This document shows positions 35,987-55,893 of a DNA stretch of 64,000 nt, piece after piece. The notes below the pieces were generated by a model, which was not told the DNA's origin, searched no databases, and saw only the letters and a program-made list of their open reading frames with translations. How positions within the stretch are numbered: the stretch's first letter is position 1; every line of letters begins with the position of its first letter. Origin of the DNA: a bacterium (GTDB lineage: Bacteria > UBA8248); assembly GCA_965261085.1 (NCBI GenBank), contig OZ253442.1, positions 3,968,001 to 4,032,000 of the forward strand, given 5' to 3'. A program made the translations under genes and the position numbers.

Positions 35987-36039
35987 GGCTGGGAACCAGG
36001 GCGCGCTTCGATTCATCGGCTTTCGGTTGAGTAGACATC

Positions 36040-37986: not shown

Positions 37987-37987
37987 G

Positions 37988-39160
37988 ATGAGCAAGACGC
38001 TGTTTTTGCTGGATCTGGAAGACAGATACTTCTTGAGCCACAGGCGCGCGCTCGCGCTGGCGGCCAAGGATGCGGGATATCGCGTCGTCATATGCGTGAG
38101 AATAGGCGGGAAATACATGGAGCGGATTCGCGAAGAGGGATTCGAGTGTTTCGCTTTGGGGAGTGAAAACAAAGAGGGCCTCTCTTTACGGAGGGAATTT
38201 GTCGCCCTATTCAAGCTTGTTCGCGCCTACCGGAAGTATCGGCCCCGAATCGCCCACCATTTCGGAGTCAGGAATCTTCTTCACGGTTCGCTCGCCGCGC
38301 GCCTCACCAAAACGCCCTTCGTCGTTAACTCATTTCTGGGACTGGGTTCGTTGTTTTCCGAAGATTCTCTGAAACTGCATGTATTGAGAAGAATCGTTTT
38401 GGTTCTGCTCAAGTATTTTCACCGGGCGAAAAACACCCGCGTGATCGTGCAGAACGACGACGATAAAGAGATGATTCTGAAAAACGTGCTTCCCGATGAA
38501 TCCCGCCTGAGCGTCATCCGAGGCTCCGGCGTCGACGTTCACTCATTTCATCCCGCACCGGAGCCTGCGGGCGCGCCCCTGGCGGTACTCGCCTCCCGGA
38601 TGCTGGCGGAAAAAGGGGTGCATGAATTCGTGGAAGCGGCGGCCCTGCTGAAAAAAGAGGGCATGAAAATTCGCATGGCGCTGGTGGGAAGCCCGGACCC
38701 AAAGAACCTATCTTCCATTCCCGAATCGACGCTTTCTGAATGGAACCGCAGGGCCCAAATCGAATGGTGGGGCTACAGAGAGGAGATGGCTGAGGTTTGG
38801 AGAGGCTGCCACATCGCCGTTTTGCCGACGTATTACAAAGAGGGACTTCCGAGAAGCCTGCTGGAGGCGGCGGCTTGCGCCCGCCCGCTGGTGGCCACCG
38901 ACGTTCCGGGATGCCGGGATATCGTGAAAGACGGCGTGAACGGACTCCACGTCGCACCCCGTGACGCCAAGAACTTGGCCGACGCCATCGGCAAGCTGGC
39001 CCGGGACGCTGCACTCCGGCAAAGAATGGGCGAGGCGGGACGGAGAATCGTGGAAAAAGAGTTTTCCGATGAAATCGTGTCAGAAGCAATTCTGAAACTC
39101 TATGAGCGCATTAGCGCGGCTGAAAAAGAATCGGGAAGAAGTAAAGAGAGTTTCGGGTAG
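37988..39160 (+). CDS. Glycosyltransferase family 4
   Basis: GSGVD, R...EKG, EGLPRSLLEA.A. Confidence 0.92.
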   Translation: MSKTLFLLDLEDRYFLSHRRALALAAKDAGYRVVICVRIGGKYMERIREEGFECFALGSENKEGLSLRREFVALFKLVRAYRKYRPRIAHHFGVRNLLHGSLAARLTKTPFVVNSFLGLGSLFSEDSLKLHVLRRIVLVLLKYFHRAKNTRVIVQNDDDKEMILKNVLPDESRLSVIRGSGVDVHSFHPAPEPAGAPLAVLASRMLAEKGVHEFVEAAALLKKEGMKIRMALVGSPDPKNLSSIPESTLSEWNRRAQIEWWGYREEMAEVWRGCHIAVLPTYYKEGLPRSLLEAAACARPLVATDVPGCRDIVKDGVNGLHVAPRDAKNLADAIGKLARDAALRQRMGEAGRRIVEKEFSDEIVSEAILKLYERISAAEKESGRSKESFG

Positions 39161-39205
39161 CCTGACGGATGGAGGAGGAAGCCTCTCGCCAGGTGAGATG
39201 ACGGC

Positions 39206-39889
39206 CTAGGCGCCAGTGCCCCGCAGGCGCAAAAAAGCGAGCGCCGTCAGGAAAATCACCCGCAGGTCCAACCAGAGCGAGTAATTCAGAATGTAGTATA
39301 AATCGTGCTCCAGTTTGATTCTGTAATCTTCAATCTGATCGACGTGGCCCTGCCGAATCTGCGCCCACCCCGTGATTCCCGCCAGAACGAGTTCGCGATA
39401 TTCGAATTCAGGATAATGTTCTTTGGCTATTTCCAGCGTCTTGATGTATTCCGCCCTCGGACCGACGATGCTCATATCCCCCTTGATGACGTTCCAGAGT
39501 TGGGGAAATTCATCGAAATGATACCGGCGCAGGAAACGCCCGAATGGATAGATTCTCGGGTCGTTTTCTTTCGTCGACATGGTTCCCTGCGGCTGATCGG
39601 CATTCACGCGCATGGTCCGGAATTTATAGAGCGTGAAGAATCTCCCGCCCTGAGTGACTCGGAGTTGAGAAAAAAATATCGGTCCCTCGCTCACGAGCTT
39701 GATCAGGATGGCGATGAGGAGTCCGAAAGGAGCGAACAAGATCAAAACAGTGATGCTGAACCCCAAATCAAACACGCGCTTGCATAGATACTGGCGCCGG
39801 CTCAAGACCCGCTTGCTCTTCAGGGCGGATAATATCCCGGTACCGGAGATGGACTCCAAAGGAACGCGGTCCTCCATGAGAGAACTCAA
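39206..39889 (-). CDS. Initiating phosphoglycosyl transferase (Bac_transf family)
   Basis: KRVFD, YKFRTM, DPRI..FGRFLR..H.DE.PQL.NV.KGDMS.VGPR, GITGWAQ. Confidence 0.93.
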   Translation of the reverse strand: MSSLMEDRVPLESISGTGILSALKSKRVLSRRQYLCKRVFDLGFSITVLILFAPFGLLIAILIKLVSEGPIFFSQLRVTQGGRFFTLYKFRTMRVNADQPQGTMSTKENDPRIYPFGRFLRRYHFDEFPQLWNVIKGDMSIVGPRAEYIKTLEIAKEHYPEFEYRELVLAGITGWAQIRQGHVDQIEDYRIKLEHDLYYILNYSLWLDLRVIFLTALAFLRLRGTGA

Positions 39890-40689: not shown

Positions 40690-42162
40690 ATGGATCCTTC
40701 CTTCCTGGCTTATGGCGCCATGGCTATCGGCGCTGCCGCGATCATCTTCACGAGCCTATACAACCTCGGAGCCGCAGGCGCGCTGTTCTTGTTCCTGAAC
40801 CCACTCGTGAACATCGAGGTCGCTTTCGGCAATACGGGAAGAAGCATCTCATACGACAAAATAGCAATCTTTGCCCTTGCCTCGGGGTTCGCGTGGCATA
40901 TTCTGAGAAACAGAAAACACGTCCGTATCACGAGGAAACCGATTTTCTGCTACATCTGGATCGTCTATATCGCCTGGAGTCTCGTTGCGGCATGGCTGAG
41001 CGGCGCTCCTGGAAAACAACAATTCTGGGGTCTCGCCGAAACGATCGCCTATTTCATCATCTTCCTGGTTTTTCTTTATATTTGCGCGGACGAAACCTCG
41101 CGCAACCGGATACTGAAAGCCATCCTCTACGGCGGCATCATCATGCTTGCGACGGTCTTGTGCCAAAATCTGGCCTATCAAATCACCTGGAAAATCTGGG
41201 GGCCGCACAACAGCTTCCGCACCGATTTGTTGTACTCGCCATTTCCCCGGATGTTCTTTCACTCGCGGCCCGGCCCGATCGGACATCCGAATTTTCTCGC
41301 CGCCTATCTGGTTCTATGGGGCACGCTTTACCCTTTGCTTTTCCGCACATTCTCCCGTCTAGCGGGGTTCACCATCTTCGCCGCACACCTCATCGTATTG
41401 GCGTCGATGCGCAGCTATGGAGGAGCTTTGGGCTTCGCCATCTGCTGTTCGGTGGTTTTGTATTTCACAAAGCCATGCCCCACGAACATGGTTTCCAGCC
41501 GCGTTTCCCATTCCAGAGCCCGGCTCCTTCGGCATGTCCTGGCCGCTATTCTCATTCTGTCAGTAGGGACCATTGCCGCCAATGACGGAGATTTCATGGA
41601 CCTGTCGCTGCTCCCTAGAATTTATATTCATCGCGTCGGTGGAAAAATGCTCGCAGAGCGACCTCTGGCGGGCTATGGAAATGGCCTTTTCCCCCAGGCA
41701 TTTCAAAAAAAGGAGAGCGTGTATATAAAAAGCGAAGGACTGAAAGCGCCACCATGGCGAATTAAGGGTTCCGATTCCGCGAGAGCCGACAAGGGCCGGG
41801 GAAAGGCGCATTCCAGCGAAAGACATGAAAATCTCCCGACGCTTTCGGCCCATTCCTCTTATCTCAAAGCCTTCGTCGAATCAGGCTTTCCGGGAGGTTT
41901 TCTTTTTCTTTGCCTGGTTGCGGGAGCACTCATAGAGGTATTTCTTCATTTGAGGAAAACAGGGCGACTTTCGATACGCTCGCCGGAAGCCTGGGGGTGG
42001 GCCGCCTGCATCGGTGTATGTTTTCAGGCCGGAGCCGAGAATATCTTTTCGTCCCCTAAAATTTTCGTTCTCTACTGGGCCATCACGGCGTATTGCCTGA
42101 CGGCAAAATCCACACGAACGAAAAGCCCCTTAGACGACCTTCGCCAGAACTTCACGATATAG
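40690..42162 (+). CDS. O-antigen ligase/Wzy-like membrane protein
   Basis: Many TM segments, HPN.LA, P..GYG.G.F, AHSSYL...VESG; start uncertain (40639 or 40690). Confidence 0.75.
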   Translation: MDPSFLAYGAMAIGAAAIIFTSLYNLGAAGALFLFLNPLVNIEVAFGNTGRSISYDKIAIFALASGFAWHILRNRKHVRITRKPIFCYIWIVYIAWSLVAAWLSGAPGKQQFWGLAETIAYFIIFLVFLYICADETSRNRILKAILYGGIIMLATVLCQNLAYQITWKIWGPHNSFRTDLLYSPFPRMFFHSRPGPIGHPNFLAAYLVLWGTLYPLLFRTFSRLAGFTIFAAHLIVLASMRSYGGALGFAICCSVVLYFTKPCPTNMVSSRVSHSRARLLRHVLAAILILSVGTIAANDGDFMDLSLLPRIYIHRVGGKMLAERPLAGYGNGLFPQAFQKKESVYIKSEGLKAPPWRIKGSDSARADKGRGKAHSSERHENLPTLSAHSSYLKAFVESGFPGGFLFLCLVAGALIEVFLHLRKTGRLSIRSPEAWGWAACIGVCFQAGAENIFSSPKIFVLYWAITAYCLTAKSTRTKSPLDDLRQNFTI

Positions 42163-43560
42163 GCTGCGCACGAAACAGAGCAAGATGGCGAACAGCCAGT
42201 AGGGATAAAAGTGGGCCGTGGTGGAAACACCGACGAACAAGGCAGCTACGGTAGAGAAAATGACGGCGAAAGGCATCACGATTTCGAGTGAACCTTCATG
42301 GGGTGGCAAGCGCATGATTCTGAAAAAATACATCAAACCCGTGGCGAGCAAGGCCATCAGCAAAACGAGACCCAGCAATCCCAAGTCCACGATGAAATTC
42401 ACCGGCAGGCTGTGCAGGGAAACCGGTGCGCTCTTTCTCGGATTTTCCTGAAACAAATCTGCAGTCGACCATCCCCGAATACCCGATTCATACCGGGTGA
42501 TGTCGCCGTAAAAATACGCAGAGAACGTGGCCGGCGTATCTTTGGAATATCCATAGAAAAACCCCTGGCGCGGCCCGCCTCCCAAGAAAGGCCGCTCGAA
42601 AAACACATCCGATGCCCGCGCGTACTGAAAGAGCCGCTCCTTGACGCTCGTAGAAATGTTCGACACTTCGATGAACTCCTCTCGCACCGTCGTCCCCACC
42701 ATCACCGAAACGCAAATACACACCAGGAAAACCGAGGTCGTGAAACAACAAACGCGAAAAGACTTTATCTTCTTGCTTGCGCCTGAGGACCCTCTGAACT
42801 TCACGAAAAAGACGAGAAGGAAGAACGCGCCCAGGAACAACGCGAAAATCGGAACCCGGCGCCATGTGGATAAAAGCATGAGTGTTCCGGTGAGCGACGC
42901 GAGCAAGTAAAACCAGCCGCCTCTTCTACAGAAAAAATAAAAGGCGACGCCCGCCAGTATCAGCCCGAGCCTGCTGGCAACGATGTGGTGCCGCGCGAAC
43001 ATGCCGAGAAAAAACCGTCCCTCATGATTGAGCGAATACGGGTTGGGGATGCTCAGATAATAGAACAGGATGCTCTCGATACCCATTGCGAAGGCGACCC
43101 AGAATACACTCCCGAGCGCGCCTTCAAACTCCTCACTCCCCCACCGGTTGTTTTGAATCAAATACCATACGAGCATACCGTCGGCGTAGGGTACGGCATC
43201 GGCCAGAATCCGGTAGAGGGGCACGGACGTCTTGATGGGGTCATCCTGCATGTAGCCATGGATAATCCCTCCCCAGAATATCACCCAAAACCAAAGGGCG
43301 GCGACGGTAAACCCCGGCGTCGGTTTTCTTGCCCCGAACCGAATAACCTCTACCACCCATGCGGAGCACAACAAAACGAAAAGGATCATGTAGACCTTAT
43401 AGGGACCCAGGGCTTGACCCGGGAAGTAAGGAACACGCTCCCATGGGATAAGAAAATAAACCGCGTGCAGACGAATGACTGAATTGGTGAGTTGAAAAGA
43501 AAAGGGGTTCTTTTCACTTGAAACAGGGTGGACATTTGAAGCCGCGCGGTCCACGTTCAA
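42130..43560 (-). CDS. O-antigen ligase/Wzy-like membrane protein
   Basis: Multi-TM, ERL.QY, PFLGGG, LHS..VN..VDLGLLG. Confidence 0.72.
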   Translation of the reverse strand: MNVDRAASNVHPVSSEKNPFSFQLTNSVIRLHAVYFLIPWERVPYFPGQALGPYKVYMILFVLLCSAWVVEVIRFGARKPTPGFTVAALWFWVIFWGGIIHGYMQDDPIKTSVPLYRILADAVPYADGMLVWYLIQNNRWGSEEFEGALGSVFWVAFAMGIESILFYYLSIPNPYSLNHEGRFFLGMFARHHIVASRLGLILAGVAFYFFCRRGGWFYLLASLTGTLMLLSTWRRVPIFALFLGAFFLLVFFVKFRGSSGASKKIKSFRVCCFTTSVFLVCICVSVMVGTTVREEFIEVSNISTSVKERLFQYARASDVFFERPFLGGGPRQGFFYGYSKDTPATFSAYFYGDITRYESGIRGWSTADLFQENPRKSAPVSLHSLPVNFIVDLGLLGLVLLMALLATGLMYFFRIMRLPPHEGSLEIVMPFAVIFSTVAALFVGVSTTAHFYPYWLFAILLCFVRSLYREVLAKVV

Positions 43561-43566: not shown

Positions 43567-44388
43567 CTACTCCGGCGCGCCTGGGCGTCTGGAAAAATAG
43601 CCTCTCTTCACCCACATGCGCACCTTGTGCGGCAACATGCGATATGAAAACCAAAGCGGCAACAATGCGCGATGCGGGAACCCTCCCCCCAAGGCGCGAA
43701 TCGCCCTGTTTTGCAGCACAACCCCATCGAGCACATAGCGAAGCCTGGCGCCCCGCTCGAAGAACTGTCTCGCGTGGATTCTTTTCGCCGCCACGGGAAC
43801 CTCCAACGCCCCGAGCTTCATTCCGTTTTCATACAATCGCACATAGAGGTCCCAGTCGAGTTGGCCGGCGCGACTCTCGTCGTAGCCTCGGATTTTCTGC
43901 ATAGCCTCGCCTCTCACGAACAATGACGTGTGAACCACAGGATTAAAAAGCATGAGTTTCCTTCGAACATCCCTCAACGAGGGCTTTTTTTCCTCCGAAC
44001 CGAATGCGGGCCAATGTGGAACGTCTTCCGCATGAAAGGCGAACAGGGGGGAAACGACAGCAGAATAATCAGGAAAACGCTGCATCACTGCTTTTTGAAT
44101 TTCAAATCTTCTGGGGTGGGACAAATCGTCGGCGTCATGCCGGGCAATGAATTCACCCCTGCTCTCGCGCATCCCGAGGTTGAGTGCTCTCGCGAGTCCG
44201 ATTCTTCCCGCTTCTATCAGGCGAATTCTAGAATCGCTAAATTTTTCGACGATTCGAATCGTATCGTCCGTGGAGCCGTCGTCGATGACGACGCATTCAA
44301 AATCGGATTCCGTCTGCGCGAGTATACTCTTCACGGCGTCGGCGATGTATTCCTCGGCGTTGTAAGACGTCATCAATACGCTTATCAC
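43567..44388 (-). CDS. Glycosyltransferase family 2
   Basis: ISVLMTSYN, DDGSTD, RHDADD; GTG start after GAGGA. Confidence 0.9.
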   Translation of the reverse strand: MISVLMTSYNAEEYIADAVKSILAQTESDFECVVIDDGSTDDTIRIVEKFSDSRIRLIEAGRIGLARALNLGMRESRGEFIARHDADDLSHPRRFEIQKAVMQRFPDYSAVVSPLFAFHAEDVPHWPAFGSEEKKPSLRDVRRKLMLFNPVVHTSLFVRGEAMQKIRGYDESRAGQLDWDLYVRLYENGMKLGALEVPVAAKRIHARQFFERGARLRYVLDGVVLQNRAIRALGGGFPHRALLPLWFSYRMLPHKVRMWVKRGYFSRRPGAPE

Positions 44389-44425
44389 GTCTGATTCCTC
44401 TTCTTGGGGCCTATTTTGCGAAAAA

Positions 44426-46351
44426 TCAATCGCCCGCCGAACGATGAGCGTCCAGCATCTCCCGAAACCATAGCTCCAAAACCACCAAAAACCATATAAG
44501 GGGATAGGAGGCTCTCCCCGCTCTGAAACGGGCATACAACCTGCGGACCTCCTTGGGTGAGAAAATACCTCTTCTGCGAAGCGACTCCTCACTGAGCGCA
44601 TCCTCGAGGATTTCTCGCAAATCTTCTTTCATCCACTTCGCCATCGGAAGGGCGAAGCCCTGTTTTCTCCTGGCGGAAATCTCAGGGGGAATGACGTCGT
44701 GAAGCGACGCCTCAAGCAATCTCTTCGGATGTCCCCATTTTTGCTCCCACCCGGGAGGCAGGCCACAGACGAATTCCACTACATGATGATCGACGAACGG
44801 CACCCGCACTTCCAGGGAATGGGCCATGCTCATCACGTCGACATCGCGCAAACATCGCCACCCCATATACACTTGCATTTCGAGTTCGCTCAGAATGCTC
44901 CAGGGCCTCTCACCAACGTGGACTAACGAGTCGAGTATCGCGAAAATATCCTCATCCGCCTTACACTCGCGAAAGTAGGTCTGCATTTGCGGGGAATACA
45001 AAGCTCTCTTCTCCTCGGGCCACAACAAAAGACGCGCCAGGGCGTACAATCCCAGCGGCGATTCCACCCATTGCAGCCGACGAAGCTTTTCAGTGCGCTC
45101 CGTAGACATGTTCGAGCCGAAGCGGAGTATCAGCGAGATGAGCGACACGAGGATTTTTCTCGTCGCCAAAGGCAATTTTCCCCATTTGGCCGATAATCGC
45201 CACAAAGGCGGTATCAGGCGAAACGAGCCGTATCCGCCGAAAAGCTCATCCGCCCCAAGGCCGGACAAGGCGACGGTTACGCCATCTTGCTTCACCGCAT
45301 GGGATAGGAGATAGGTATTGATTCCATCGAAACTTGGCTGGTCCAGATGCCGCACGATGCGGGGAAGCTCCCCTGCCACCTTCGAGCCTTTGATCACGAA
45401 CTCCAAGTGGCGCGTTGAAAAGGATTGCGCCGCAGTTCTCGCATATTTTCTCTCATCGTATCCTTCAGGAGCATCATCGAAACCGATGGAATAGGTCCTT
45501 ACGGGTTTATCCGCCCGGCGGGACATCAACCCCACAATCGCCGAAGAATCCAGACCACCACTCAAAAATGCCCCTATGGGAACATCGCTTATTTGATGGA
45601 GTTCGACGCTTTCCTCCAATAAACCACGTAGACGGGGAACGATTTCCTCATCGGCGCATCGCGTCGTTCCGGGTGCCGGTATCTCCCACCACTGCTCGAT
45701 GGATGCACCCTTTTCGGTGATGCGCATTCGGTGCCCCGGAGGCAAAGCCTTCACGCCTCTCAATAGCGTGCGTGCACCGGGAACGAAGCCCAGAGAAAGG
45801 CTGAGGTCAAGAGAATTCAGGTCGAGTTCGGGGCGAATCGCGCCGCTTCTCACCAGCGCTCCCAATTCCGAGGCGAACGCCCATCCACCCGCGATCGGCG
45901 CGTAGTACAAAGGTTTCACGCCGAGCCGGTCACGCGTCAAGAGCAAGATTCTTCGGCCGGCGTCCACGATCGCGAATGAAAACATCCCCCTTAAAAAACG
46001 GGCGCACCCCTCCCCTTCCTCCTCGTAAAGGCGCAGAAGAACCTCCGTATCGGAGTTCGATCTGAAGGCGTGGCCTCGACTCGCCAGATGCTCCCTCAAT
46101 CGTCTGAAATTATAGATTTCCCCGTTCAACGCAACGCAGGTTCTCCCATCTTCGCTGGTCATGGGTTGTTTCGCCGCCGAACTCGGGTCGATGACGCTCA
46201 GACGCCTCACCCCAATGCAGGTTCCTCCAAAACGCCAAAGCCCCACATCGTCTGGGCCGCGATGCGTCATCGCATCGCACATCCGCGCAACATTCTCCTC
46301 CATCAAGGACGGTGAGAGTTCGGTCGAGGTGATTCCGCAAATTCCGCACAT
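44426..46351 (-). CDS. asnB: Asparagine-synthase-like amidotransferase (second copy)
   Basis: MCGICG, HRGPD, NGEIYN, SGGLDSS, SGLGADELFGGY. Confidence 0.93.
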   Translation of the reverse strand: MCGICGITSTELSPSLMEENVARMCDAMTHRGPDDVGLWRFGGTCIGVRRLSVIDPSSAAKQPMTSEDGRTCVALNGEIYNFRRLREHLASRGHAFRSNSDTEVLLRLYEEEGEGCARFLRGMFSFAIVDAGRRILLLTRDRLGVKPLYYAPIAGGWAFASELGALVRSGAIRPELDLNSLDLSLSLGFVPGARTLLRGVKALPPGHRMRITEKGASIEQWWEIPAPGTTRCADEEIVPRLRGLLEESVELHQISDVPIGAFLSGGLDSSAIVGLMSRRADKPVRTYSIGFDDAPEGYDERKYARTAAQSFSTRHLEFVIKGSKVAGELPRIVRHLDQPSFDGINTYLLSHAVKQDGVTVALSGLGADELFGGYGSFRLIPPLWRLSAKWGKLPLATRKILVSLISLILRFGSNMSTERTEKLRRLQWVESPLGLYALARLLLWPEEKRALYSPQMQTYFRECKADEDIFAILDSLVHVGERPWSILSELEMQVYMGWRCLRDVDVMSMAHSLEVRVPFVDHHVVEFVCGLPPGWEQKWGHPKRLLEASLHDVIPPEISARRKQGFALPMAKWMKEDLREILEDALSEESLRRRGIFSPKEVRRLYARFRAGRASYPLIWFLVVLELWFREMLDAHRSAGD

Positions 46352-46464
46352 ATGATCACCGAGCCATCTTTTTACCCGCAAAAGAAACCCATATCGCCTA
46401 TCTGATGGCGATGGGTCTCGAAGTCGGGGAGAACCGAAACGTCCGGGGAATTTCCCGGATCACC

Positions 46465-48228
46465 TTACGACTGCAATTCCACGAATTTTCGATATCGGCC
46501 TTCCATCCGCATGAGAGAGGGGTGGTCTCCTTCCTCGACGATTCTCCCGCTCTCGAGAACCAGAATTTTGTCCGCATTTCTTATTGTAGAGAGACGATGC
46601 GCGACGATCAGGATGGTCATCCGCCCGCTGAGATTCCGCACAGCCTCCTGGATGAGACGCTCGAACCCGCTGTCGAGCGAACTCGTCGCTTCGTCCAGGA
46701 CCAATATCCGGGGGGAGCGAACCAAAGCTCTCGCAAGGGCCAGACGCTGTTTTTGCCCGCCGGATAACTTGAACCCCCGATTCCCGATGATCGTTCGGTA
46801 CCCCTCGGGCAATTCCGTGATGTATTCATGGGCATAGGCGATTTCCGCGGCCTTTCGCACCTCCCCTTCATCCGCGCTCAAGTTTCCATAGCGGATGTTG
46901 TTGTAAACCATGTCGTTGAAGAGATAGGGATCCTGCTCCACCACCCCGATTCGGCTTCGCCATTCACTCGCGGACACGTCTTTCAAATCTACGTCATCGA
47001 CATAGATGACGCCCTGCGTCGGATCATGAAGACGCAAGAAAAGATCGACGAAAGTCGTCTTCCCGCTTCCTGAAGAACCCACGAGCGCCGTCGTCGTATC
47101 CTTTTCGATCGATACGTTTATTCCGCTCAGCGCATCACCCCGCGCTTCCGGATATGTGAACGACACGTTTTCAAACCTGACTCCTTTTTGCAGAGAACCG
47201 ATAGAAGCGATTCCTTCCGGCAAGCATTCCAGGCTTTTGCCTTCAGCGTATTCGCGAACCCTCGCCATGTGGGGAGCGAATTCGTTCACGATGAGCCAGT
47301 AATTGCCTATCAGCTTGAGCTTGGGGAGAACTTGCAAAAAGATCGCCAAAAACACCGTGAGGGTGAAAAAGGGAATCTCCAGAAATTTGACCGAAACAAT
47401 CAAGCAGAAAACCATCATCAAGAAAATCAACGGCTCGTAGAAGAACGACGCAATGATTCTGTTGTGCATGATCTGGACACAGACCCGGTGATACCCATTT
47501 GCGCGCATCGTATAATTTTCGATGTGATGCGCGAGGTTTCCAAACACTTTCACCGTCTTGATTCCCGAGAAAACATCGTGGAGATAGGAACTGATGTTCT
47601 CCACGCCCTCCGATTCTTTCGCGCCCTCCGCATAGGCCTTGCGAAACCACGGAAGTAGAAAAAACCAGGAAATCGACGAGAGGCCGAGGACCAGAACACT
47701 CAGCGAAAAAGAAACCATCAAATTCAGGATCAGATACAAAATACAGAAAAAAATGGCGTTCATGATGAGCATCACGTGTTCGAAAACAAAACCGCAATTG
47801 TTCGCAGAAGTGAATTGAACAGAGACGAGATCGCCGATTTTTCTTCGGTAAAAAAACGAGAGGGGAAGATCCATGAAGTTTCGAAATATTTTTTCTCTCA
47901 TGTCGCATGCGATTCTCGAACTCAGCACCCTCGCGAAGCGCATGGAGCTCGCAACCAGAGCATATTTGACCAGCATGGCGAACGAGAACAAGGCGATGAG
48001 ATTGAGGAGTGAAAACTCCAAGCCGACGACGCCGAATCCCCATTCGGCGTACGCCGTGAGGATGTGGTTCGTTGCGATGCCCTGAATTGTCTGAAATATG
48101 GGCATCAGCAGTCCCAAGCCGACGCTCTCGAACATCGTCGCCAGAATTAGGATGAACAAATACAAGAACAGGAAATCCTTGTAATCCCGTGCGACGGCGA
48201 GAATATATCTTTGTTTATCGTTCCACAT
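46465..48228 (-). CDS. MsbA/PglK-like ABC exporter (glycan flippase candidate)
   Basis: TM domain plus GSSGSGKT, LSGGQKQR, LDEATS, AHRL; start uncertain (48228 or 48261). Confidence 0.9.
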   Translation of the reverse strand: MWNDKQRYILAVARDYKDFLFLYLFILILATMFESVGLGLLMPIFQTIQGIATNHILTAYAEWGFGVVGLEFSLLNLIALFSFAMLVKYALVASSMRFARVLSSRIACDMREKIFRNFMDLPLSFFYRRKIGDLVSVQFTSANNCGFVFEHVMLIMNAIFFCILYLILNLMVSFSLSVLVLGLSSISWFFLLPWFRKAYAEGAKESEGVENISSYLHDVFSGIKTVKVFGNLAHHIENYTMRANGYHRVCVQIMHNRIIASFFYEPLIFLMMVFCLIVSVKFLEIPFFTLTVFLAIFLQVLPKLKLIGNYWLIVNEFAPHMARVREYAEGKSLECLPEGIASIGSLQKGVRFENVSFTYPEARGDALSGINVSIEKDTTTALVGSSGSGKTTFVDLFLRLHDPTQGVIYVDDVDLKDVSASEWRSRIGVVEQDPYLFNDMVYNNIRYGNLSADEGEVRKAAEIAYAHEYITELPEGYRTIIGNRGFKLSGGQKQRLALARALVRSPRILVLDEATSSLDSGFERLIQEAVRNLSGRMTILIVAHRLSTIRNADKILVLESGRIVEEGDHPSLMRMEGRYRKFVELQS

Positions 48229-48424
48229 GGGGCTTTTTTGCTTAAGCCGGAAATTGCCCAAAACATGAACGATTTCAGCAGGCCGAAAGCCCCGGGCGCA
48301 TCAGAATCACTCATGCTCCTCGGAGGTCACGCCATGCGTTTCATCGTCGCTCATCCTTGGGTCGGGGTCGATATTTCCGGACCTTTGCCTCGTGGTGGGT
48401 CGTCTTTATCTCGTGGAGTGGCGT

Positions 48425-49831
48425 TTATGGATTTTGAATTTCAGGTAGTTTCTCAGACGAAGCCGTTTCCATCCACTCAGCCGCAATTTTCTCCGCTAGC
48501 CAAAACTCATACGCCGAATTGATTCTCACGCTTTCCTCTGGAAGCATCGTGATATGCCCTATTTTTTCTCCTAAAAATTTTCCGGATAGAATCGAATCCA
48601 CCCGGTTCAGGTAAATCGCGCCGTTTTCCTTGAACAACGCTTCTCTCTCAAGACGGAACGTTCTTTGGAAAGATCCGTTGACGGGGGTGAGGCCATGTTT
48701 ACCGTGATGATAGAAGAATGAAATATCCTCGGTGATGGATATCACGGAATCGACACCGAAAATCGTCATGGTGTCCACGGCTTTATCGATGTGCCTGCCC
48801 CGGCGAAAAGGGGTGTTGATATAGCATATGCAAACAGCATCGGGGACATATCCATGCTCCTCCAGCGTCCTCAAAACATGAAGCGTCGTATCCGCTATCT
48901 TGGCAGTCCGTTCCGCCAGCGCTTCGGGCCTAAGGAGGCCATCCACTCCCTCGAAACGCTCTAAATAAGCCAACACGCCTTCATCGTTGGAGGACACGAC
49001 TATCTTGTCGATGGAGCGCGCTTCCTTGATTTGCTCCAGGGTTCCTTTCAACAGCGGCTTTCCCATGAATTGCGTAAGAGGATTCGCGAGCTCGCATCCC
49101 CCATCCACGACTACGGGAACGAGCGCCAATACTTTTGGTTGGCGGGAAAGATTCATTTCCTCCACCACCCGCCTTTTGATTTTGCGGCGCGTCTCCAGGA
49201 GCAGGCCCCGGGATTTCGACAAACTCTCGCCGTGACGACGATAATAAAACAGGGGCAGATTCACGTTATAGGGATAATGCCGCTGAATGAATTTCAGCCA
49301 CAGCCCGTAACCGTCCTGACGATCGAACTCCTCGAAATAACCGCCTATTTCCGCGAGAATTTCCTTGCGGATCATGGTGCATGCGCCATGCGCCGGAAGA
49401 TCGAGCAAATCGATCTCTTCTCCTATTTTCTGGCGACGAACGATTTCGATGATCTCTCCATCCTCGTCCACGTGATAATAATCCGGGTACACCAGACCTA
49501 CGCCGGGTTTCGTGTCCAGGATGTTGGAGAGAACCAGCAGAATGTTCTCATCCAGAAAATCATCCGCATCCAGCCGCATCAGGTATTCGCCCTCGGCGGC
49601 GCGCAAGGCGATGTTGTTCGTGAAATTCAAACCCTTGTTCTCTTGCTCAAGAATGCGAATCTTGGGATACGCTCTGTAGGGTTCGAGTATTTCCGCCGTG
49701 TTGTCCGTCGAGCCGTCATTGATGACGATCAACTCCCAATCATCCATGGTCTGCTTCAAAACGCTTTGTATCGCGGCGTCGAGAAAACGGGCGTAGTTGT
49801 AGGTAGGAATGTAAACCGTAATTTTAGGCAT
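48425..49831 (-). CDS. GT2 glycosyltransferase fused to a degenerate NeuA-like cytidylyltransferase domain
   Basis: N-terminal IPTYN, NDGSTD, LDADD; C-terminal GKPLL, IVVSS.D, TPFR, ENGAIY. Confidence 0.85.
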   Translation of the reverse strand: MPKITVYIPTYNYARFLDAAIQSVLKQTMDDWELIVINDGSTDNTAEILEPYRAYPKIRILEQENKGLNFTNNIALRAAEGEYLMRLDADDFLDENILLVLSNILDTKPGVGLVYPDYYHVDEDGEIIEIVRRQKIGEEIDLLDLPAHGACTMIRKEILAEIGGYFEEFDRQDGYGLWLKFIQRHYPYNVNLPLFYYRRHGESLSKSRGLLLETRRKIKRRVVEEMNLSRQPKVLALVPVVVDGGCELANPLTQFMGKPLLKGTLEQIKEARSIDKIVVSSNDEGVLAYLERFEGVDGLLRPEALAERTAKIADTTLHVLRTLEEHGYVPDAVCICYINTPFRRGRHIDKAVDTMTIFGVDSVISITEDISFFYHHGKHGLTPVNGSFQRTFRLEREALFKENGAIYLNRVDSILSGKFLGEKIGHITMLPEESVRINSAYEFWLAEKIAAEWMETASSEKLPEIQNP

Positions 49832-49870
49832 GATGAATCAACCCAAATGGAATGAATCCGGCCGCCATGA

Positions 49871-51463
49871 TTATTCCACCATGTCTATGAAGAGGGACTG
49901 ATCCGCCTGGATGTCCGTTTGTGCTCGTCTGCCGATCAATTCATCCATCATCCAGCCCGGAAGGCCGTCGGCGGGCCTTTTCATGCCCAGCATGGAAGAT
50001 TCTATGGTCTCTCCACTCCCAATATCCCGCTCGGCTACGATGCTGCGCCGGGCACTGTCGCGGGCGGCGTGTTCTCCCTCGGCGACTCCGAGCGCACCGT
50101 CTCCCAAAACGCTCTCAGCAAGGCGAACGTTTTGCACTATCTTCTTCAAATCTTTCGGGTTCATCGAGAAGAAATGGCCTGAATCACTCAACTCTCGATC
50201 CAGAGTGTAGTGTTTTTCAATGACCTTCGCTCCCAGAGCCACGCCCAGGGAAGGTATGACCATGTTCGCATCCGGTTCAGTATGATCGGAAAGACCAACG
50301 ATGAGACCGGGGTATCTTTCTTTCAAAGAGCGGATACGCAGAAGATTCGCATCTTTGTTCGGCGCCGGATAACTCAACATACAGGCCATGAGGATGAGTT
50401 GATGGTTGCCCGTAGCGAAAATGGTGGTGATGGCCCGCTCGATCTCCTCGACCATAGAACCCCCGCTTGAAAGAATAACGGGCTTGCCGAAACCGGCCAC
50501 GCACCTGAGCAACCGGCTGTCGGGAAGATCACATGAGGCGATTTTGAAAAGCGGTGCGTCCAAATCGTTCAGCATCTCGGCGCTTTCAACGTCGAACGGC
50601 GTGGAGAACGTGATGATGCCCTTCTCGAAACCGTATGCGAAAAGCGCTTCATATTCAGGCGCGCCGAAGCGATCGAGTTTCCGATAATACTCAATTTGCG
50701 GAATCTGTTTCCCGCGCCAGTAAGTCATCGCTCCTTTGCGCGTCAGGCGTTCGGCCTTATAGGTCTGGAACTTGATAGCATCCGCCCCGGCTTCGGCGGC
50801 GAGGTCGATCATCTCCTTGCCCATGCCTAAGTCACACATGTGATTGCAGGCGGCTTCGGCAATCACGAAGGCGGGATGGCCCTCCCCTATCATCCTGTCA
50901 CCGACGGCGATTTCCTTCGAATACGGACTCATCTCATGCGCGGCCATGGCGAGGTCGAATGAAGAGTGGATGTTGACGCAATCATCTTGAACTGCGGATG
51001 AATACAGGGGCGGGTCCGCCATCAACGCCCTCATGCTCATGATGCGAAGCGCCCCGTTTCGCTTTCCATGGCGATCCACCGTACACAAATCGTCGATCCG
51101 GTTGTCTTTGACGTATTGCAACAGGGCGTCCAAGTCGCTTTTTCTGTTCGGATGATCGGGTTGAACCCCGACAAGGAAAGACACGTTCACACGGCCCAAT
51201 TCCCTGGCGACGTCCCGGTACACCTCGACCAAGGGCGTTTCGCCGCTCAGCCCATCGCCCCTGAAATGAACCATCACCCTGTTGCGCCTGCCGATCTCGG
51301 CAATTTCTTCGGAATCGGTGGATACGACGATTTTGTCCACACTCCGAAATTTCCTGGCGTAGTGAATGGCATGCACCACCAGAGAAAGGCCGTTGATTTC
51401 CAACAAATTCTTGTCCGCCAGACGATCCGAATGCCGCTTGGCCGGTATGACGGCGACGATCAA
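49871..51463 (-). CDS. neuB: NeuA-like cytidylyltransferase fused to NeuB-family nonulosonate synthase with SAF domain
   Basis: IPAKRHSDRLADKN, VVSTD; IAEA..NH, KFQTY, STPFD, KIAS.D, GLSDHT, IEKH.TL, RRSIVA, KRPA.G. Confidence 0.9.
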   Translation of the reverse strand: MIVAVIPAKRHSDRLADKNLLEINGLSLVVHAIHYARKFRSVDKIVVSTDSEEIAEIGRRNRVMVHFRGDGLSGETPLVEVYRDVARELGRVNVSFLVGVQPDHPNRKSDLDALLQYVKDNRIDDLCTVDRHGKRNGALRIMSMRALMADPPLYSSAVQDDCVNIHSSFDLAMAAHEMSPYSKEIAVGDRMIGEGHPAFVIAEAACNHMCDLGMGKEMIDLAAEAGADAIKFQTYKAERLTRKGAMTYWRGKQIPQIEYYRKLDRFGAPEYEALFAYGFEKGIITFSTPFDVESAEMLNDLDAPLFKIASCDLPDSRLLRCVAGFGKPVILSSGGSMVEEIERAITTIFATGNHQLILMACMLSYPAPNKDANLLRIRSLKERYPGLIVGLSDHTEPDANMVIPSLGVALGAKVIEKHYTLDRELSDSGHFFSMNPKDLKKIVQNVRLAESVLGDGALGVAEGEHAARDSARRSIVAERDIGSGETIESSMLGMKRPADGLPGWMMDELIGRRAQTDIQADQSLFIDMVE

Positions 51464-52755
51464 CTCTCCTCTCCTCTCGTTTTCATGCGCGAAATTACCG
51501 GCATGATTTGTCCCGCCTGCCGAAGCACAATGAGCTTCGAATTTGGTCCCGTCGAATCCAAGGCTCTCTCGACCGCCGCCTCTATCGACTCGGCCCAGCC
51601 GAATCCCATCCCGTTCGCCTCCTCACGGTCGATATGGGGGGAAACCAATACCCCCTTCACGCGCTTGGAAATGATTCTGCCGATGGCGACCAGCGTATAG
51701 GCCAGGAGTTTTTCACGAAATTCACCCATTTTAACCTTTCGGTAAAGCGCGTCGGGGTCTTTGAAACCATACCGCTCAAAATTGGGGAATTGCGGCGAAA
51801 CGCCTTCCCGGCAATCCGCGGCTAGGATGATCACCCCGTTGTCCCGGCAGACGAGGTCCGCCGCGCACACGGCTTTAATGGACTGGCGCAGATCGATGTC
51901 AGCCGGGTAGGCTTCCGCAACGACGACTTCCGCCTTTGCGGCGACCGGCACACCATATAGATCCAGACATCGCTCACAGCCCACTTCGTGGGCCGATTCC
52001 AAGTCTCCGGCAACGGCGTCATAAATTCTTTCCTCATCCATCATGATTGTGTTGACGATGAAACGCAGCCTGACCCGACGCGCGATGCGAACAAACGCTT
52101 CTCTCACCTTGTTGTCGAAGTGGCCGAGAATTTCTCTCATCTCATAGTCCAGAGCGGCCCAATGGGTCTCTTCTATCGTGGCCTCTCCGCAAATGCCGGG
52201 CATCACGCTCTTCGCCCCGCCGGAGAAGCCCGCCGTCGCATGAGGTATGATGCTGCCGACGGATATAGTGAGATCCGTTTTCAGGATTTCCTTGTTCATC
52301 AGCACGTCAAAACCCAACCCGCTCTTCCCCAATGAAATAAGCTTTAAGGGGTTTTTCCATTCATGGTTGAGAATCTCGAATCGCGCGACCAGATCGTCTC
52401 CAAACTTGCGCCGTATCTCCTCATCCGTCATGGCGCGGTGCGTACCCAAGCCGATCAGAATACGGATGGAAGAATCGGAGACGCCCGCCTCGGCAAGTTC
52501 CTCCAGAATGAGGGGAAGTACGCGATGAAGCGGGGTATGGCGCGTATTGTCGTCGGTGACGATCAACACCCTCCCGGCGCCTTTGGAAATCTCCCGGAGA
52601 GGGGGAGCGCCGATCGGGTTTCGAATCCGCTCCCGCAGGGCTTCGTCATCAAGCCCCCCGCCTCTTGATAGTGAGGGACCATAGACCCCTATCAGCCGCC
52701 CATCTTCGACTTCAAAATCGCCGAACAGATCATTCGTCAGAGATATCCTCGCCAT
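51460..52755 (-). CDS. larA: LarA-family nickel-pincer-dependent racemase/epimerase
   Basis: NPIGAPPL, DDNTR.TP, GLGTHR.MT, NH, PH..AGFSGGAK...PG, THW, Q..K; substrate unknown. Confidence 0.88.
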   Translation of the reverse strand: MARISLTNDLFGDFEVEDGRLIGVYGPSLSRGGGLDDEALRERIRNPIGAPPLREISKGAGRVLIVTDDNTRHTPLHRVLPLILEELAEAGVSDSSIRILIGLGTHRAMTDEEIRRKFGDDLVARFEILNHEWKNPLKLISLGKSGLGFDVLMNKEILKTDLTISVGSIIPHATAGFSGGAKSVMPGICGEATIEETHWAALDYEMREILGHFDNKVREAFVRIARRVRLRFIVNTIMMDEERIYDAVAGDLESAHEVGCERCLDLYGVPVAAKAEVVVAEAYPADIDLRQSIKAVCAADLVCRDNGVIILAADCREGVSPQFPNFERYGFKDPDALYRKVKMGEFREKLLAYTLVAIGRIISKRVKGVLVSPHIDREEANGMGFGWAESIEAAVERALDSTGPNSKLIVLRQAGQIMPVISRMKTRGEES

Positions 52756-54641
52756 CAGCGCGCCTCCGCCTCATCGGTTCGCCATAATTTCGAATCAGGC
52801 GAAGAGAAAATATCCACCCATTCTGAGCGCCAGTTCTTGTTGTTGCGATAATAACGAATCGCAAATTCATCGACGGCTTCCCGCGTGCTGCGATCCTCCC
52901 ACCACGAATCGACATCAGGCCAGATGGCGTTCAGATGCCTCGCCGCACTCTCGCCGGATGAATGATGAACGTGCACACTGATAAGTTTCTTGATGCCCGG
53001 TTTCGCAAAACGGGAAACGCGCCAGGCGTTAGCCCCCCCGAAGAAAAGGGTCGGAATGCCCGCCGCCATCGTGAATGCCGCCGTCGTTCCCGGGCGATCG
53101 AGAACACAAACGCCGCATCCCGCTAACGCACGCGAGAGCTTGGTCGGCATGTATCTCACCAATTTTCCGCGAAGGATTTTCACGTCAGGGTATTTCTTTT
53201 CGATATAGGCCTGATCGTATTGATTGTTCCTCCTGCGCGTATACGGCCTGTACCACAAGGCGGAGCGAGGCGCGTCGCCCAAGTGTTCGATGAAACTCGT
53301 CTTCCCCATCATGTATTGCGCGATGTCTTCGGGAAGGGAGTCCGCCGCCAGCCATTTCATATGGGGGGTGAGTTCGGAGCTGACCAGAATGATGAATGAG
53401 TTCCGCTTCTTGCTCCTCCTCATTTTTGAGAGAAAAGGAGAAACCGCCGGCACGGCGTTTATTCGATAATCGGATTGACGCCTCCACCCCCACGATATGA
53501 ACCGATCGGCCGTCTTATACTCCGCAAGGTGATGCCAAGGCGCCGACTCGATGACGCCGTAGTTCCCCCCATGCTGATTGATAACCAGCCTTGCCGGGCG
53601 TTTTTCTAGGAGAGCGGCCACGTAAAAATTCGACTGATCGTCATTTCCCAGATGGCCATAGGCGATGGTATCCGTCCAGGGCGCCGTCGCCTTTACCTTC
53701 AACCGGGCTTTTTTCTCGTTTTCCAGATAATGATGTGTGAAAATCTTTGGCATCATCTCCACAACGAGCCCATCCAAAACACTCAGGAAAATCACGGCTT
53801 CCGTAGCGGTGATGTCCCGGAACGATTGGAGTTCATCAACCACGTCGTTCCTGGTGAGGTTCCCCTTTTCCGCTTCGGACGTTTCATCAAACGATTTAGC
53901 GGCCTCTTTCCAGCCTCTTCTGTTTCGAAACAGCATGCGCAAGGAAATGTAAAAAGCATCCAGCGGACTCAATCCATGCACTTTATGGAATTGTACGCAC
54001 CCCATGTTGGAAGAGAGGATGCTCGCCCAGCGATACACCTCCATTTTTCTTTGCACTTTTTTGAAAACGGCATAGTTTTCCGTTGAAGTCGCGCCGGATG
54101 AGTGGTCCGAGGAGAAATACGCATCTCCCGGGGCGGGAGCACCGTCTCGCACCACCCAATCTCGGGGCTGGAATGCGCGGATGAATTTACTGAATATCAG
54201 CCGGTTCAAAGGATCGTCGATAAGCATCTGATTAAAATGGGGCGTCGTGATGGATGAAAGGCTTTCATCCTCAGGGGAGAGATATACGAGATACGGCACA
54301 CGGCTTCTGACCCGATTTCTGACGCGCAAAAACCGTTCGAATGCGCACATGACCAGATTGATGAGCCACGGCATCAACAAGATGCGCCAGTAGCGATTCG
54401 AATAAGAACGCCCGTGTCTTTCGTTTTGCCGGATATTCAACCTAGAGAGATAGAATTCACAAACCTTCTCAAGCCTTCTGGAGACGAAGTGAACCTCCTC
54501 GCTTTTGAGCGCCGGCTCGATTTCGTATTTTTTCCATTCCCACTCAAAAAGCTGAGACTCCGAAAGTGACCAGGGGCCTAAATGCTCGGCCTGTCGCTCG
54601 TTCGGGATGGAATCGATTTTCGTCAGCACGAGTTGTTTCAT
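52755..54641 (-). CDS. LIC12162-family putative glycan transferase
   Basis: LGPW, YWRILLMPWL, QHGGNYG, HLAEY...D.FISWGW, IPTL, HL..IW.DV.SWW; the ORF-track start runs through the tRNA, so MKQLVLT is preferred. Confidence 0.75.
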   Translation of the reverse strand: MKQLVLTKIDSIPNERQAEHLGPWSLSESQLFEWEWKKYEIEPALKSEEVHFVSRRLEKVCEFYLSRLNIRQNERHGRSYSNRYWRILLMPWLINLVMCAFERFLRVRNRVRSRVPYLVYLSPEDESLSSITTPHFNQMLIDDPLNRLIFSKFIRAFQPRDWVVRDGAPAPGDAYFSSDHSSGATSTENYAVFKKVQRKMEVYRWASILSSNMGCVQFHKVHGLSPLDAFYISLRMLFRNRRGWKEAAKSFDETSEAEKGNLTRNDVVDELQSFRDITATEAVIFLSVLDGLVVEMMPKIFTHHYLENEKKARLKVKATAPWTDTIAYGHLGNDDQSNFYVAALLEKRPARLVINQHGGNYGVIESAPWHHLAEYKTADRFISWGWRRQSDYRINAVPAVSPFLSKMRRSKKRNSFIILVSSELTPHMKWLAADSLPEDIAQYMMGKTSFIEHLGDAPRSALWYRPYTRRRNNQYDQAYIEKKYPDVKILRGKLVRYMPTKLSRALAGCGVCVLDRPGTTAAFTMAAGIPTLFFGGANAWRVSRFAKPGIKKLISVHVHHSSGESAARHLNAIWPDVDSWWEDRSTREAVDEFAIRYYRNNKNWRSEWVDIFSSPDSKLWRTDEAEAR

Positions 54642-54784
54642 GCGTCGAGCACTTTTCCCACACCTCATCGCATACGCATAAGGCGTGAACGGAGTAACGG
54701 CGCAAATGGCCGTCCCCCCAAGGCGCGCGTTAAACACCCTCGCGCCGCTCGACTTGACGGGAAAGGAATTTCTACAGCAACGGT

Positions 54785-54862
54785 TGGCGTCCCCAAGGGG
54801 ATTCGAACCCCTGTTGCCGGCGTGAAAGGCCAGTGTCCTGGGCCAGGCTAGACGATGGGGAC
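54785..54862 (-). tRNA. tRNA-Glu (TTC)
   Basis: Acceptor stem GTCCCCA/TGGGGAC, anticodon loop CTTTCAC, GGTTCGAATCC T-arm, encoded CCA. Confidence 0.97.
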
Positions 54863-54916
54863 AAGTAAAAATCCAGGAAGGCCAAGGAATGAATTCCCGG
54901 ACCTTCAAGGGGTCGA

Positions 54917-54945
54917 TTTATACTGGTTTTCGGGCTGGAAGTCCA
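54917..54945 (-). promoter_or_regulatory. Putative sigma70 promoter of tRNA-Glu
   Basis: TGGACT-N17-TATAAA. Confidence 0.5.
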
Positions 54946-54960
54946 TCCCGCTCCACCACT

Positions 54961-55830: not shown

Positions 55831-55893
55831 AATGCAATTCTCCGCTCGTAGACGGCGACCGAAATATCTCTCCCCAAAGACCCCCTGAAAAAT

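Follow-up and report, generated by a model that had tools for sequence, protein, structure and literature searches.

The window analysed here is a 64,000-nt stretch of a bacterial genome of the UBA8248 lineage (assembly GCA_965261085.1, contig OZ253442.1, positions 3,968,001 to 4,032,000), and its gene of interest encodes a homologue of the nickel-pincer isomerase LarA. Strands and frames were taken from the open reading frames (ORFs) of the window, and domains were called with Pfam and NCBIfam models at their cut-offs. Read from the minus strand, a gene for a LIC12162-family transferase (52755..54641) is followed by larA (51460..52755), whose 431-aa product carries the Lar_N and LarA_C domains; by a gene for a 530-aa fusion of a short KdsB/NeuA-like domain, a NeuB domain and a SAF domain (49871..51463; Pfam); and by a gene for a 468-aa fusion of a family 2 glycosyltransferase (GT2) domain and a NeuA-like domain (48425..49831; Pfam and PDB alignment). 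This last gene, which a first-pass annotation of the window had not mentioned, proved to be the third conserved partner. The overlaps reported in that annotation are visible in the DNA: the stop codon of the LIC12162-family gene and the larA start share one base at 52755 (TGATG), and the larA stop shares four bases (51460-51463; TTGA) with the TTG start of the neuA-neuB fusion, which is preceded by a purine-rich stretch. A gap of 39 nt separates the fusion from the GT2/NeuA-like gene.

The LarA protein of the window matched both family domains above their cut-offs (Lar_N PF09861, 185.6 bits, E=8e-55; LarA_C PF21113, 48.4 bits, E=1e-12) and belongs to the same two-domain fold family as the LarA proteins in the PDB, namely L. 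plantarum LarA (5HUQ/6C1W; E=1e-53), Mar2 (6D6Z; 3e-51) and LarA_Ip (9EIA; 5e-36). Residues D68, R72, H106, H172, K182, H198, Q291 and K294 of the window protein align with D72, R75, H108, H174, K184, H200, Q295 and K298 of L. plantarum LarA. Two of the His residues serve catalysis, and R75, K184 and H200 bind the cofactor, nickel-pincer nucleotide (NPN) (PMC11770544; accessible part of PMC11851776); in LarA_Ip, Arg, Gln and Lys residues and two His bind the substrate carboxylate (accessible part of PMC11851776). The window protein thus has the tethering Lys, the nickel-binding His, the catalytic His pair and the carboxylate-binding Arg/Gln/Lys of the superfamily, and the DxTR, GTH, PH and GG.K motifs noted previously are present as DDNTR, GLGTHR, IIPH and GGAK.

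The genes larB, larC and larE lie outside the window, as had been stated, and the search elsewhere in the genome that the first-pass annotation proposed located them in a cluster at G000:C1:2262081-2264844, 1.75 Mb away. Each scored above its cut-off (larB, NF033503, 293.5 bits; larC, PF01969, 447.7 bits; larE, TIGR00268, 344.7 bits). The window larA is the sole Lar_N match in this genome, which is a single contig of 4,267,820 bp with a completeness of 96.27; its product is therefore the only LarA-family protein on hand that could use the cofactor. Together, the residues and the cofactor genes predict that the window LarA is a competent NPN enzyme with its chemistry intact.

We assessed the conservation of the linkage in a scan of one genome per prokaryotic species, which used an alignment of 22 homologues and gave 64 loci. 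These were found via two peptide patterns, and divergent members may have been missed. Partner genes were scored by tblastn with the window proteins within 10-kb flanks; related loci are not independent samples. LarA was at least 44% identical to the window LarA in 36 of the 64 loci, which fell in at least six phyla; the carriers were Nitrospinota, Planctomycetota (Anammoxibacter, Pirellulales and Planctomycetia), Bacteroidota, Verrucomicrobiota, Desulfobacterales, Omnitrophota, a 'Deltaproteobacteria' metagenome-assembled genome (MAG) and Candidatus Zymogenus. A NeuB(-NeuA) homologue of 46-89% identity accompanied LarA in 34 of these 36 loci, the two misses (L024 and L048) being contigs that break off within larA or next to it. 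In 32 of the 36, either the GT2/NeuA-like fusion or just its GT2 part was present; two of the misses are on contigs of 3.2 and 2.3 kb (L024 and L069), and the other two loci (L023 and L027) have a separate CTP_transf_3 gene instead. Neither partner was found in any of the 28 loci with a LarA of at most 41% identity. The linkage is thus not unique to this genome, and the recurrence of this LarA clade beside neuAB, suggested previously as a check, is borne out.

When the ORFs of 19 representative loci were clustered all against all, nothing but LarA and the NeuB/GT2-NeuA-like group was common to 19 of 19, and the flanking genes differed from locus to locus. Leg-like precursor genes (for legionaminic acid, Leg), B12-radical-SAM enzymes, methyltransferases and a BFO_1060-like protein flank the cassette in Omnitrophota and Planctomycetia; a sulfotransferase, a carbamoyltransferase and an ATP-binding cassette (ABC) exporter do so in Anammoxibacter; and additional NeuB paralogues and Pse-like genes (for pseudaminic acid, Pse) are found in L025 and L027. 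Within the window's own phylum, 23 of 51 genomes, the window's included, had a LarA match at E <=1e-80; within the window's genus, such a match was present in 19 of the 22 other genomes. The distribution outside the genus is patchy, and one of the 23 matches is a different LarA, only 36% identical.

The LIC12162-family gene, which the first-pass annotation had named together with neuAB as an operon partner of larA, did not share this conservation. Its homologues occur in the 21 closest loci only, all of the window's lineage, and we rejected it as a conserved partner; NeuB is the member of the proposed pair that stands. Membership in the subfamily is clear: the product scored 274.6 bits with TIGR04331, whose cut-off is 225, over positions 1-583 of the 585 in the profile. 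It matched no Pfam family. The longest frame spans 52755-54908, and the ATG at 54641 is the first residue conserved among the homologues. The large proteins of unassigned type in distant loci showed no detectable homology to it (hhalign probabilities <=2.5); those of the Omnitrophota type have a BFO_1060-like C-terminus. We also considered whether the AMP-binding, M20 and EamA genes located upstream might serve to activate the acid. We treat them as flank because in L025 about 6 kb of other genes lie between them and larA and because they are restricted to the window's lineage.

We built a LarA tree of 62 rows by a maximum likelihood quick search under LG+G4, leaving out three short rows (L048, L069 and L071) and treating L024 as linked even though partners could not be seen on so short a contig. 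For this tree and for that of NeuB, branch support is by the Shimodaira-Hasegawa-like approximate likelihood ratio test (SH-aLRT) only, and long branches are present. All 35 linked LarAs fell on one side of a branch with an SH-aLRT of 98. The order of phyla within the linked clade departs from taxonomy, which fits horizontal transfer. In the NeuB tree, the 15 cassette NeuB domains were set apart from four other NeuBs of the same loci (98), and the internal groupings of the cassette NeuBs were similar to those of the LarA tree. By these comparisons, the linkage is a conserved and horizontally spread three-gene cassette and, as judged from the two trees, LarA and the cassette NeuB have co-evolved. 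One locus contains three NeuB paralogues within 21 kb (L027:2863-3945, 6963-8078 and 19621-21213); only the last of them, which is NeuA-like-fused, falls in the LarA-linked NeuB clade, and an amidase, a GNAT protein and a DegT aminotransferase are encoded between larA and this cassette NeuB.

The linked LarAs also share a pocket. Catalytic and cofactor residues are common to linked and unlinked proteins, and the catalytic His pair, the tethering Lys, the nickel-binding His and the carboxylate-binding residues are invariant in 35 of 35 clade members. So are eight residues in the pocket or near it, A173, T174, W199, R290, Y353, T354, R360 and F323; among the 27 unlinked LarAs, position 290 is W in 25, position 353 is A in 20 and position 323 is H in 25. 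An invariant, clade-specific pocket would be expected of a clade whose members all share a single defined substrate, unlike that of its relatives. The sister of the linked clade is a LarA from a Planctomycetota MAG (L046:5941-7245) with nearly the same signature (G,T,W,R,Y,T,E,F). Its 13.8-kb contig has no NeuB or GT2 partner; the genes around it encode a fumarase-class lyase, proteins of the aconitase family and the enolase superfamily, a creatininase, a polysaccharide deacetylase and a sugar ABC transporter.

This pocket matches no described group. The window LarA scored under every NCBIfam equivalog cut-off. The LarAH6 malate racemase model gave the best curated score and covered nearly the full length (NF052593, 297.2 bits against 500), followed by lactate racemase (NF033504, 280.8 against 460), LarAH10 (272 against 540) and LarAH5 malate racemase (NF052595, 231.5 against 462); no 2-hydroxyglutarate racemase model was among the NCBIfam matches. 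LarAH6 was also the best model for the unlinked outgroup LarAs, all below the cut-off and with scores much like that of the window LarA; the match is therefore the nearest landmark and only a weak hint. A search of the ESM Atlas returned generic LarA clusters only.

Four positions of LarA1 (F175, F176, W358 and T359) have been used to predict specificity: lactate racemases read F,F,W,E/Q, gluconate epimerases (GntE) read E,V,A,H, 2-hydroxyglutarate racemases read Y,F,H/Q,T, and malate racemases have H/Q,K at the third and fourth positions (PMC11770544). The window LarA reads A,T,Y,T. On both score and signature it falls outside the lactate racemases, so the ordinary lactate racemase that the first-pass annotation had named as a refutation of its own reading is contradicted by the residues (A,T,Y,T instead of F,F,W,E/Q) as well as by the sub-cut-off scores. 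It likewise falls outside the malate racemases LarAH6 and LarAH5, having Y353/T354 where Mar2 has H,K (Mar2 also reads Y,K at 173/174 and Y at 290, in window numbering), and it agrees with the 2-hydroxyglutarate signature at the last of the four positions alone. In addition, Arg290 replaces the Tyr (the Tyr294 position) that hydrogen-bonds the substrate 2-OH in LarA_Ip, according to the accessible part of PMC11851776. The A,T,Y,T signature, the Arg at the Tyr294 position and a context of glycan assembly instead of catabolism or fermentation are what separate this protein from the characterised superfamily. On tree and residue evidence, the linked LarAs are a distinct, uncharacterised LarA clade.

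The partners of LarA resemble nonulosonic-acid enzymes without belonging clearly to any of their described types. The neuA-neuB product contains a NeuB-family domain (Pfam NeuB, 236.8 bits), a partial CTP_transf_3 match (profile positions 1-120) and a SAF domain; its N-terminal domain (approximately residues 1-185) has the motif IPAKRHSDRLADKN, which aligns to the KdsB N-terminus, and it aligns to the first ~100 KdsB residues only. The NeuB part fell below the models for both NeuB/LegI (TIGR03569, 281.3 bits against 399.65) and PseI (TIGR03586, 259.7 against 340.25), as did the 11 other cassette NeuBs tested, making 12 of 12. NCBIfam scores were rejected as a means of separating cassette from other NeuBs, since all were below cut-off; it was the tree that separated them.

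In the GT2/NeuA-like fusion, the glycosyltransferase domain (Glycos_transf_2, 100.4 bits) has a DxD motif, LDADD, and its best PDB match is the C-terminal glycosyltransferase domain of chondroitin polymerase. The CTP_transf_3 domain reached 22.0 bits against a cut-off of 22.6. It aligns to residues 23-222 of N. meningitidis NeuA, with ESVRIN opposite DSIDID; 10 of 10 homologues have K, R or Q in place of the first Asp, and their Arg/Lys motif at the N-terminus varies. Neither the two motifs nor the Pfam score places this domain among the NeuA/KdsB-type CMP-sugar-acid synthetases (CMP, cytidine monophosphate). We take the Asp residues of DSIDID in NeuA to bind the catalytic metal and the N-terminal Arg/Lys motif to bind the nucleotide. 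If these roles hold, the loss of the metal-binding Asp suggests that the GT2-fused domain binds a (CMP-)sugar acid instead of making one.

Precursor genes for the usual nonulosonic acids were likewise missing. The window's genome contained no Epimerase_2 (NeuC/LegG/WecB type), no PseG and no PseB-type dehydratase; its Polysacc_synt_2 matches were weak (best 42.8 bits), and tblastn with the precursor enzymes of an Omnitrophota locus gave no more than a generic dehydratase and one DegT, elsewhere in the genome. Epimerase_2 was present in 0 of 9 related carrier genomes, as against 5 of 5 carriers from other phyla. Because the precursor genes are missing, the canonical routes to neuraminic acid (Neu), Leg or Pse cannot supply the cassette NeuB in the window's lineage. 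The Omnitrophota and Planctomycetia loci have a full Leg-like precursor set, with the cassette NeuB as their sole NeuB. Compared with the canonical pathways (NeuC/NeuB/NeuA, Leg and Pse), then, the cassette shares a NeuB-family synthase with SAF and NeuA/KdsB-like domains, and it differs in including LarA, in using a NeuB of a separate paralogue clade and in having a second NeuA-like domain without the DID motif. The label 'nonulosonic-acid operon' given in the first-pass annotation is supported by the NeuB family and the NeuA/KdsB-like domains but is not secure, given the missing precursor genes and the sub-cut-off NeuB scores.

The conserved carboxylate-binding residues and the two His indicate that the substrate of LarA is an alpha-hydroxy carboxylate with a hydrogen at C2. 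A ulosonic acid has no C2-H, and its C1/C2 end is therefore excluded as a substrate. Arg290, in turn, suggests a second negative group on the substrate. With these constraints, the reading that we place first, though we hold it tentatively, is that LarA racemises an alpha-hydroxy (di)acid of the malate or 2-hydroxyglutarate type that is built into the glycan beside the ulosonic acid. Such a LarA would invert C2 of its substrate through the family's proton-coupled hydride transfer, acting outside central metabolism, in a cassette that would build a ulosonic-acid-containing surface glycan. It would supply the D-(R) isomer of a small acid with a second anionic group, and the D-acid would become a non-sugar component of the glycan, adjacent to the ulosonic acid. 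There it would be glycosylated at its 2-OH, plausibly by the GT2/NeuA-like protein and, in the window's lineage, amide-linked via its other carboxylate, plausibly by AsnB-type enzymes. The LarA activity, the identity of the acid and the protein attaching it are all putative.

Besides Arg290, two hints favour a diacid: the best curated model is the LarAH6 malate racemase, and the sister LarA of L046 is encoded beside a fumarase-class lyase and an aconitase-family protein. D-malate and D-2-hydroxyglutarate are products of LarA-family racemases, formed from common L-forms or from metabolism (PMC11770544). The corresponding product class exists in marine O-polysaccharides. In those of Flexibacter (Tenacibaculum) maritimum and Shewanella algae BrY, a nonulosonic acid is linked via (R)-2-hydroxyglutaric or (R)-malic acid; these D-type alpha-hydroxy diacids are O-glycosylated and amide-linked, as the favoured model would have it (accessible part of PMC3210612). 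In the polysaccharide of Flexibacter maritimus, the nonulosonic acid is joined to an amino sugar through the 2-hydroxyglutaric acid residue with which that sugar is acylated, and the linkage residue is given as R-2-hydroxyglutaric (same part of PMC3210612). No genes are assigned to these structures in that part of the source, and the D-acid may arise another way.

Several observations weigh against this preferred reading. The pocket, A,T,Y,T, fits neither the malate (H/Q,K) nor the 2-hydroxyglutarate (Y,F,H/Q,T) signature, and the malate racemase scores are below their cut-offs. The context of L046 is a hint from a single locus. The accessible part of PMC3210612 gives the 2-hydroxyglutaric residue once as S and once as R. 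Neither AsnB-type genes nor any other obvious acid-activating enzyme is conserved beyond the window's lineage, so the attachment chemistry would have to lie outside the conserved core. LarC was found in three of five carrier MAGs of other phyla, which have one to three Lar_N genes each, and not in the Cytophagia and Omnitrophota carrier MAGs, which may be incomplete. Moreover, a small free acid would offer no obvious reason for the strict co-evolution of LarA with one NeuB paralogue. Of the nickel-dependent step in surface-glycan synthesis proposed by the first-pass annotation, the tie to a glycan cassette is strongly supported by comparative genomics, and the reaction itself is a prediction.

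The co-evolution with NeuB is better accounted for, as are the missing precursor genes, if LarA is a sugar-acid epimerase within the pathway of a new ulosonic acid, an explanation that we consider possible but doubtful. LarA might epimerise C5 of a free hexuronic acid before its NeuB condensation with phosphoenolpyruvate, or, once a dicarboxylic 'ulosaric' acid has resulted, it might act at that acid's distal alpha-hydroxy-acid end; the product would be a CMP-activated sugar acid other than Neu, Leg, Pse or Kdn. LarA follows its dedicated NeuB paralogue strictly, even in loci with two to three NeuBs. Moreover, because the window's genome has neither Epimerase_2 nor PseG and only weak Polysacc_synt_2 matches, and 0 of 9 related carriers have Epimerase_2, the cassette NeuB would have to take a non-canonical aldose, and the sub-threshold NeuB/LegI and PseI scores of all 12 cassette NeuBs point the same way. 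The small A173/T174 in place of F175/F176 would enlarge the pocket, and the family already includes gluconate 2-epimerases (PMC11770544). However, the pocket is unlike the GntE signature E,V,A,H, and the Leg-like set accompanying this single NeuB in Omnitrophota and Planctomycetia fits an ordinary nonulosonic acid there. Nor is a uronate-forming dehydrogenase conserved beside the cassette, where a 128-aa fragment was found in L032 only, and LarA cannot act on the usual carboxylate end of a ulosonic acid. We know of no sugar of this 'ulosaric' or epimerised-uronate-derived kind.

More doubtful still is the specific claim that the cassette makes a new CMP-activated sugar acid, 'ulosaric' or derived from an epimerised uronic acid, with its stereochemistry set by a nickel-pincer epimerase. 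If true, NPN would here be put to use in nucleotide-sugar or glycan biosynthesis for the first time, and the cassette would represent a fourth route to NeuB-type sugars, independent of NeuC/LegG/PseG and spread horizontally over many environmental phyla.

N-glyceroyl nonulosonic acids exist, and the first-pass annotation had raised the idea of a D-lactyl or glyceryl substituent. On this view LarA would be a racemase for lactate, glycerate or 2-hydroxybutyrate, providing the D-form for N- or O-acyl decoration of the sugar acid, and we regard it as unlikely. Enzymes of the LarA group that prefer glycerate or 2-hydroxybutyrate exist, and Y at the W358 position is a loose mark of the broad 'hydrophobic 2-hydroxyacid racemases' (PMC11770544); methyltransferase genes also adjoin larA in L036, L037 and L032. 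Yet the F,F,W,E/Q signature is not present, an invariant extra Arg290 would be unexpected for a neutral side chain, and no acyl-activating enzyme is conserved in the cassette.

It is improbable, in our view, that the LarA scaffold has been reused for a redox-neutral isomerisation other than C2 inversion or as a non-catalytic binding subunit. The accessible part of PMC12611868 describes LarA homologues whose active sites are altered and whose reactions are unassigned, the adjoining NeuA-like domain looks non-canonical, and LarC was not found in two of the five carrier MAGs; but those MAGs may be incomplete, and the catalytic His pair, the tethering Lys and the nickel-binding His, invariant in 35 of 35 linked proteins, form the pattern of a working racemase or epimerase. 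An ordinary metabolic lactate or malate racemase merely sitting in a glycan locus, as the database annotation 'nickel-dependent lactate racemase' would have it, is highly improbable in view of the three genes found together in at least six phyla with all flanks changing, the overlapping stop and start codons, the clade's own pocket signature and the scores below every equivalog cut-off.

To our knowledge, the LarA-family enzymes characterised so far all function in free hydroxy-acid metabolism. Our search of the full-text literature found no paper linking LarA or the nickel-pincer cofactor to the synthesis of nonulosonic acid, exopolysaccharide or O-antigen, or to NeuB. The main texts of two surveys of the LarA superfamily (PMC7583248 and PMC11770544; supplements not covered) contain none of the terms sialic, neuB, neuraminic, polysaccharide and glycosyl. 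LarA is treated as lactate use in PMC8397731, where nonulosonic acids appear in the reference list only; LIC12162 is placed beside neu genes, without LarA, in PMC6679464, the one paper found to name it; and the T. maritimum O-antigen paper holds no gene-level information on these functions. With a LarA clade tied so firmly to a NeuB-type synthase and a glycosyltransferase, the nickel-pincer cofactor would acquire a part in building the cell surface, and the structure of a surface glycan would then depend on nickel supply. Among LarA-family proteins, that of the cassette is the sole user of larBCE in the window's genome and its relatives. The clade also offers a candidate gene for the origin of D-hydroxy-acid residues or unusual sugar acids in marine O-antigens, and a candidate answer to the function of many 'orphan' LarA homologues.

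LarA domains occurred in other arrangements as well. In a survey of Thermoplasmatota, 105 of 201 genomes had Lar_N, and two long frames encoded LarA-Fer4-CCG fusions (L079:5604-7955, genome G107, 783 aa; and G112:C1 near 1032617-1033198), in which a complete LarA, with both Lar_N and LarA_C, is fused to a 4Fe-4S dicluster domain and two cysteine-rich CCG domains. This arrangement resembles a racemase joined to an oxidoreductase subunit of the LutA/GlcF type; it adjoins elongation factors EF-2 and EF-1alpha and a pterin-binding enzyme. A NeuA-LarA fusion was found neither in these 201 genomes nor among the best 150 of 6234 representatives, none of which had the length expected of one. A search for longer LarA proteins gave a single match, a 911-aa protein (P0122) that combines a PAS/HisKA/HATPase sensor kinase with Lar_N, LarA_C and DUF362; it is 36% identical to the window LarA over 69% of it, and its LarA-like domain may be a sensor module.

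The minus-strand row to which the cassette belongs spans ~54.9 kb to 42.1 kb of the window. Beyond the GT2/NeuA-like gene, it encodes an MsbA/HepA/PglK-like ABC exporter (46465..48261, minus strand; ABC_membrane and ABC_tran), which gave 401.7 bits with a HepA-family model, under its cut-off; an ABC exporter likewise follows the GT2 fusion in L029 and L025. Next on the minus strand is an AsnB-type glutamine amidotransferase or carboxylate-amidating enzyme (44426..46381; Asn_synthase, 294 bits, and GATase_7), which by tblastn across the 64 loci is conserved in the window's lineage only; a role of the locus's AsnB-type enzymes in amide formation is plausible. A GT2 glycosyltransferase (43567..44601, minus strand; Glycos_transf_2, 102 bits) comes next. 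The longest ORFs of these two genes (43567-44601 and 44426-46381) overlap by 176 nt and the Pfam domain of the glycosyltransferase begins at residue 74; its true start is therefore probably downstream of the listed one. The row ends with a Wzy_C or O-antigen-ligase-like membrane protein (42130..43560, minus strand; Wzy_C, 35.2 bits against a cut-off of 31.7). Further glycan genes, assigned with Pfam, lie at 35231..39889 and encode a methyltransferase, a second AsnB-like enzyme, a family 1 glycosyltransferase and a Bac_transf initiating phosphoglycosyl transferase. The G+C content is 0.51-0.56 over 40-56 kb, as against 0.60-0.66 at the window start. A scan of 41500-57500 for promoters and terminators turned up nothing promoter-like on the minus strand, and the terminator-like sites were all weak.

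In Anammoxibacter, the ABC exporter is followed by a gene for a 592-aa protein (L029:14691-16469) with an HMGL-like domain of the pyruvate aldolase or carboxylase type and an MptE-like (Maf-type, DUF115) domain. The window opens with a tandem pair of transposase genes of one type (11-1351 and 1825-3267, plus strand; 446 and 480 aa), which have DUF772 and DDE_Tnp_1_6 or DDE_Tnp_1 domains. Directly upstream of a phosphonate-type ABC transporter operon (59056-61541) lies a gene (61538-63499, minus strand) whose 653-aa product contains CCP_MauG (di-haem cytochrome c peroxidase) and RoxA-like cytochrome c domains. The block at 9375-26495, which is unrelated to the glycan row, has the look of organic-acid or sugar-acid uptake and catabolism; it encodes a TRAP (tripartite ATP-independent periplasmic) transporter DctM fusion, NMT1-like binding proteins, two GFO/IDH/MocA oxidoreductases, an MR_MLE enolase-superfamily protein, a 3-hydroxyisobutyrate-dehydrogenase-like protein and a sulfatase.

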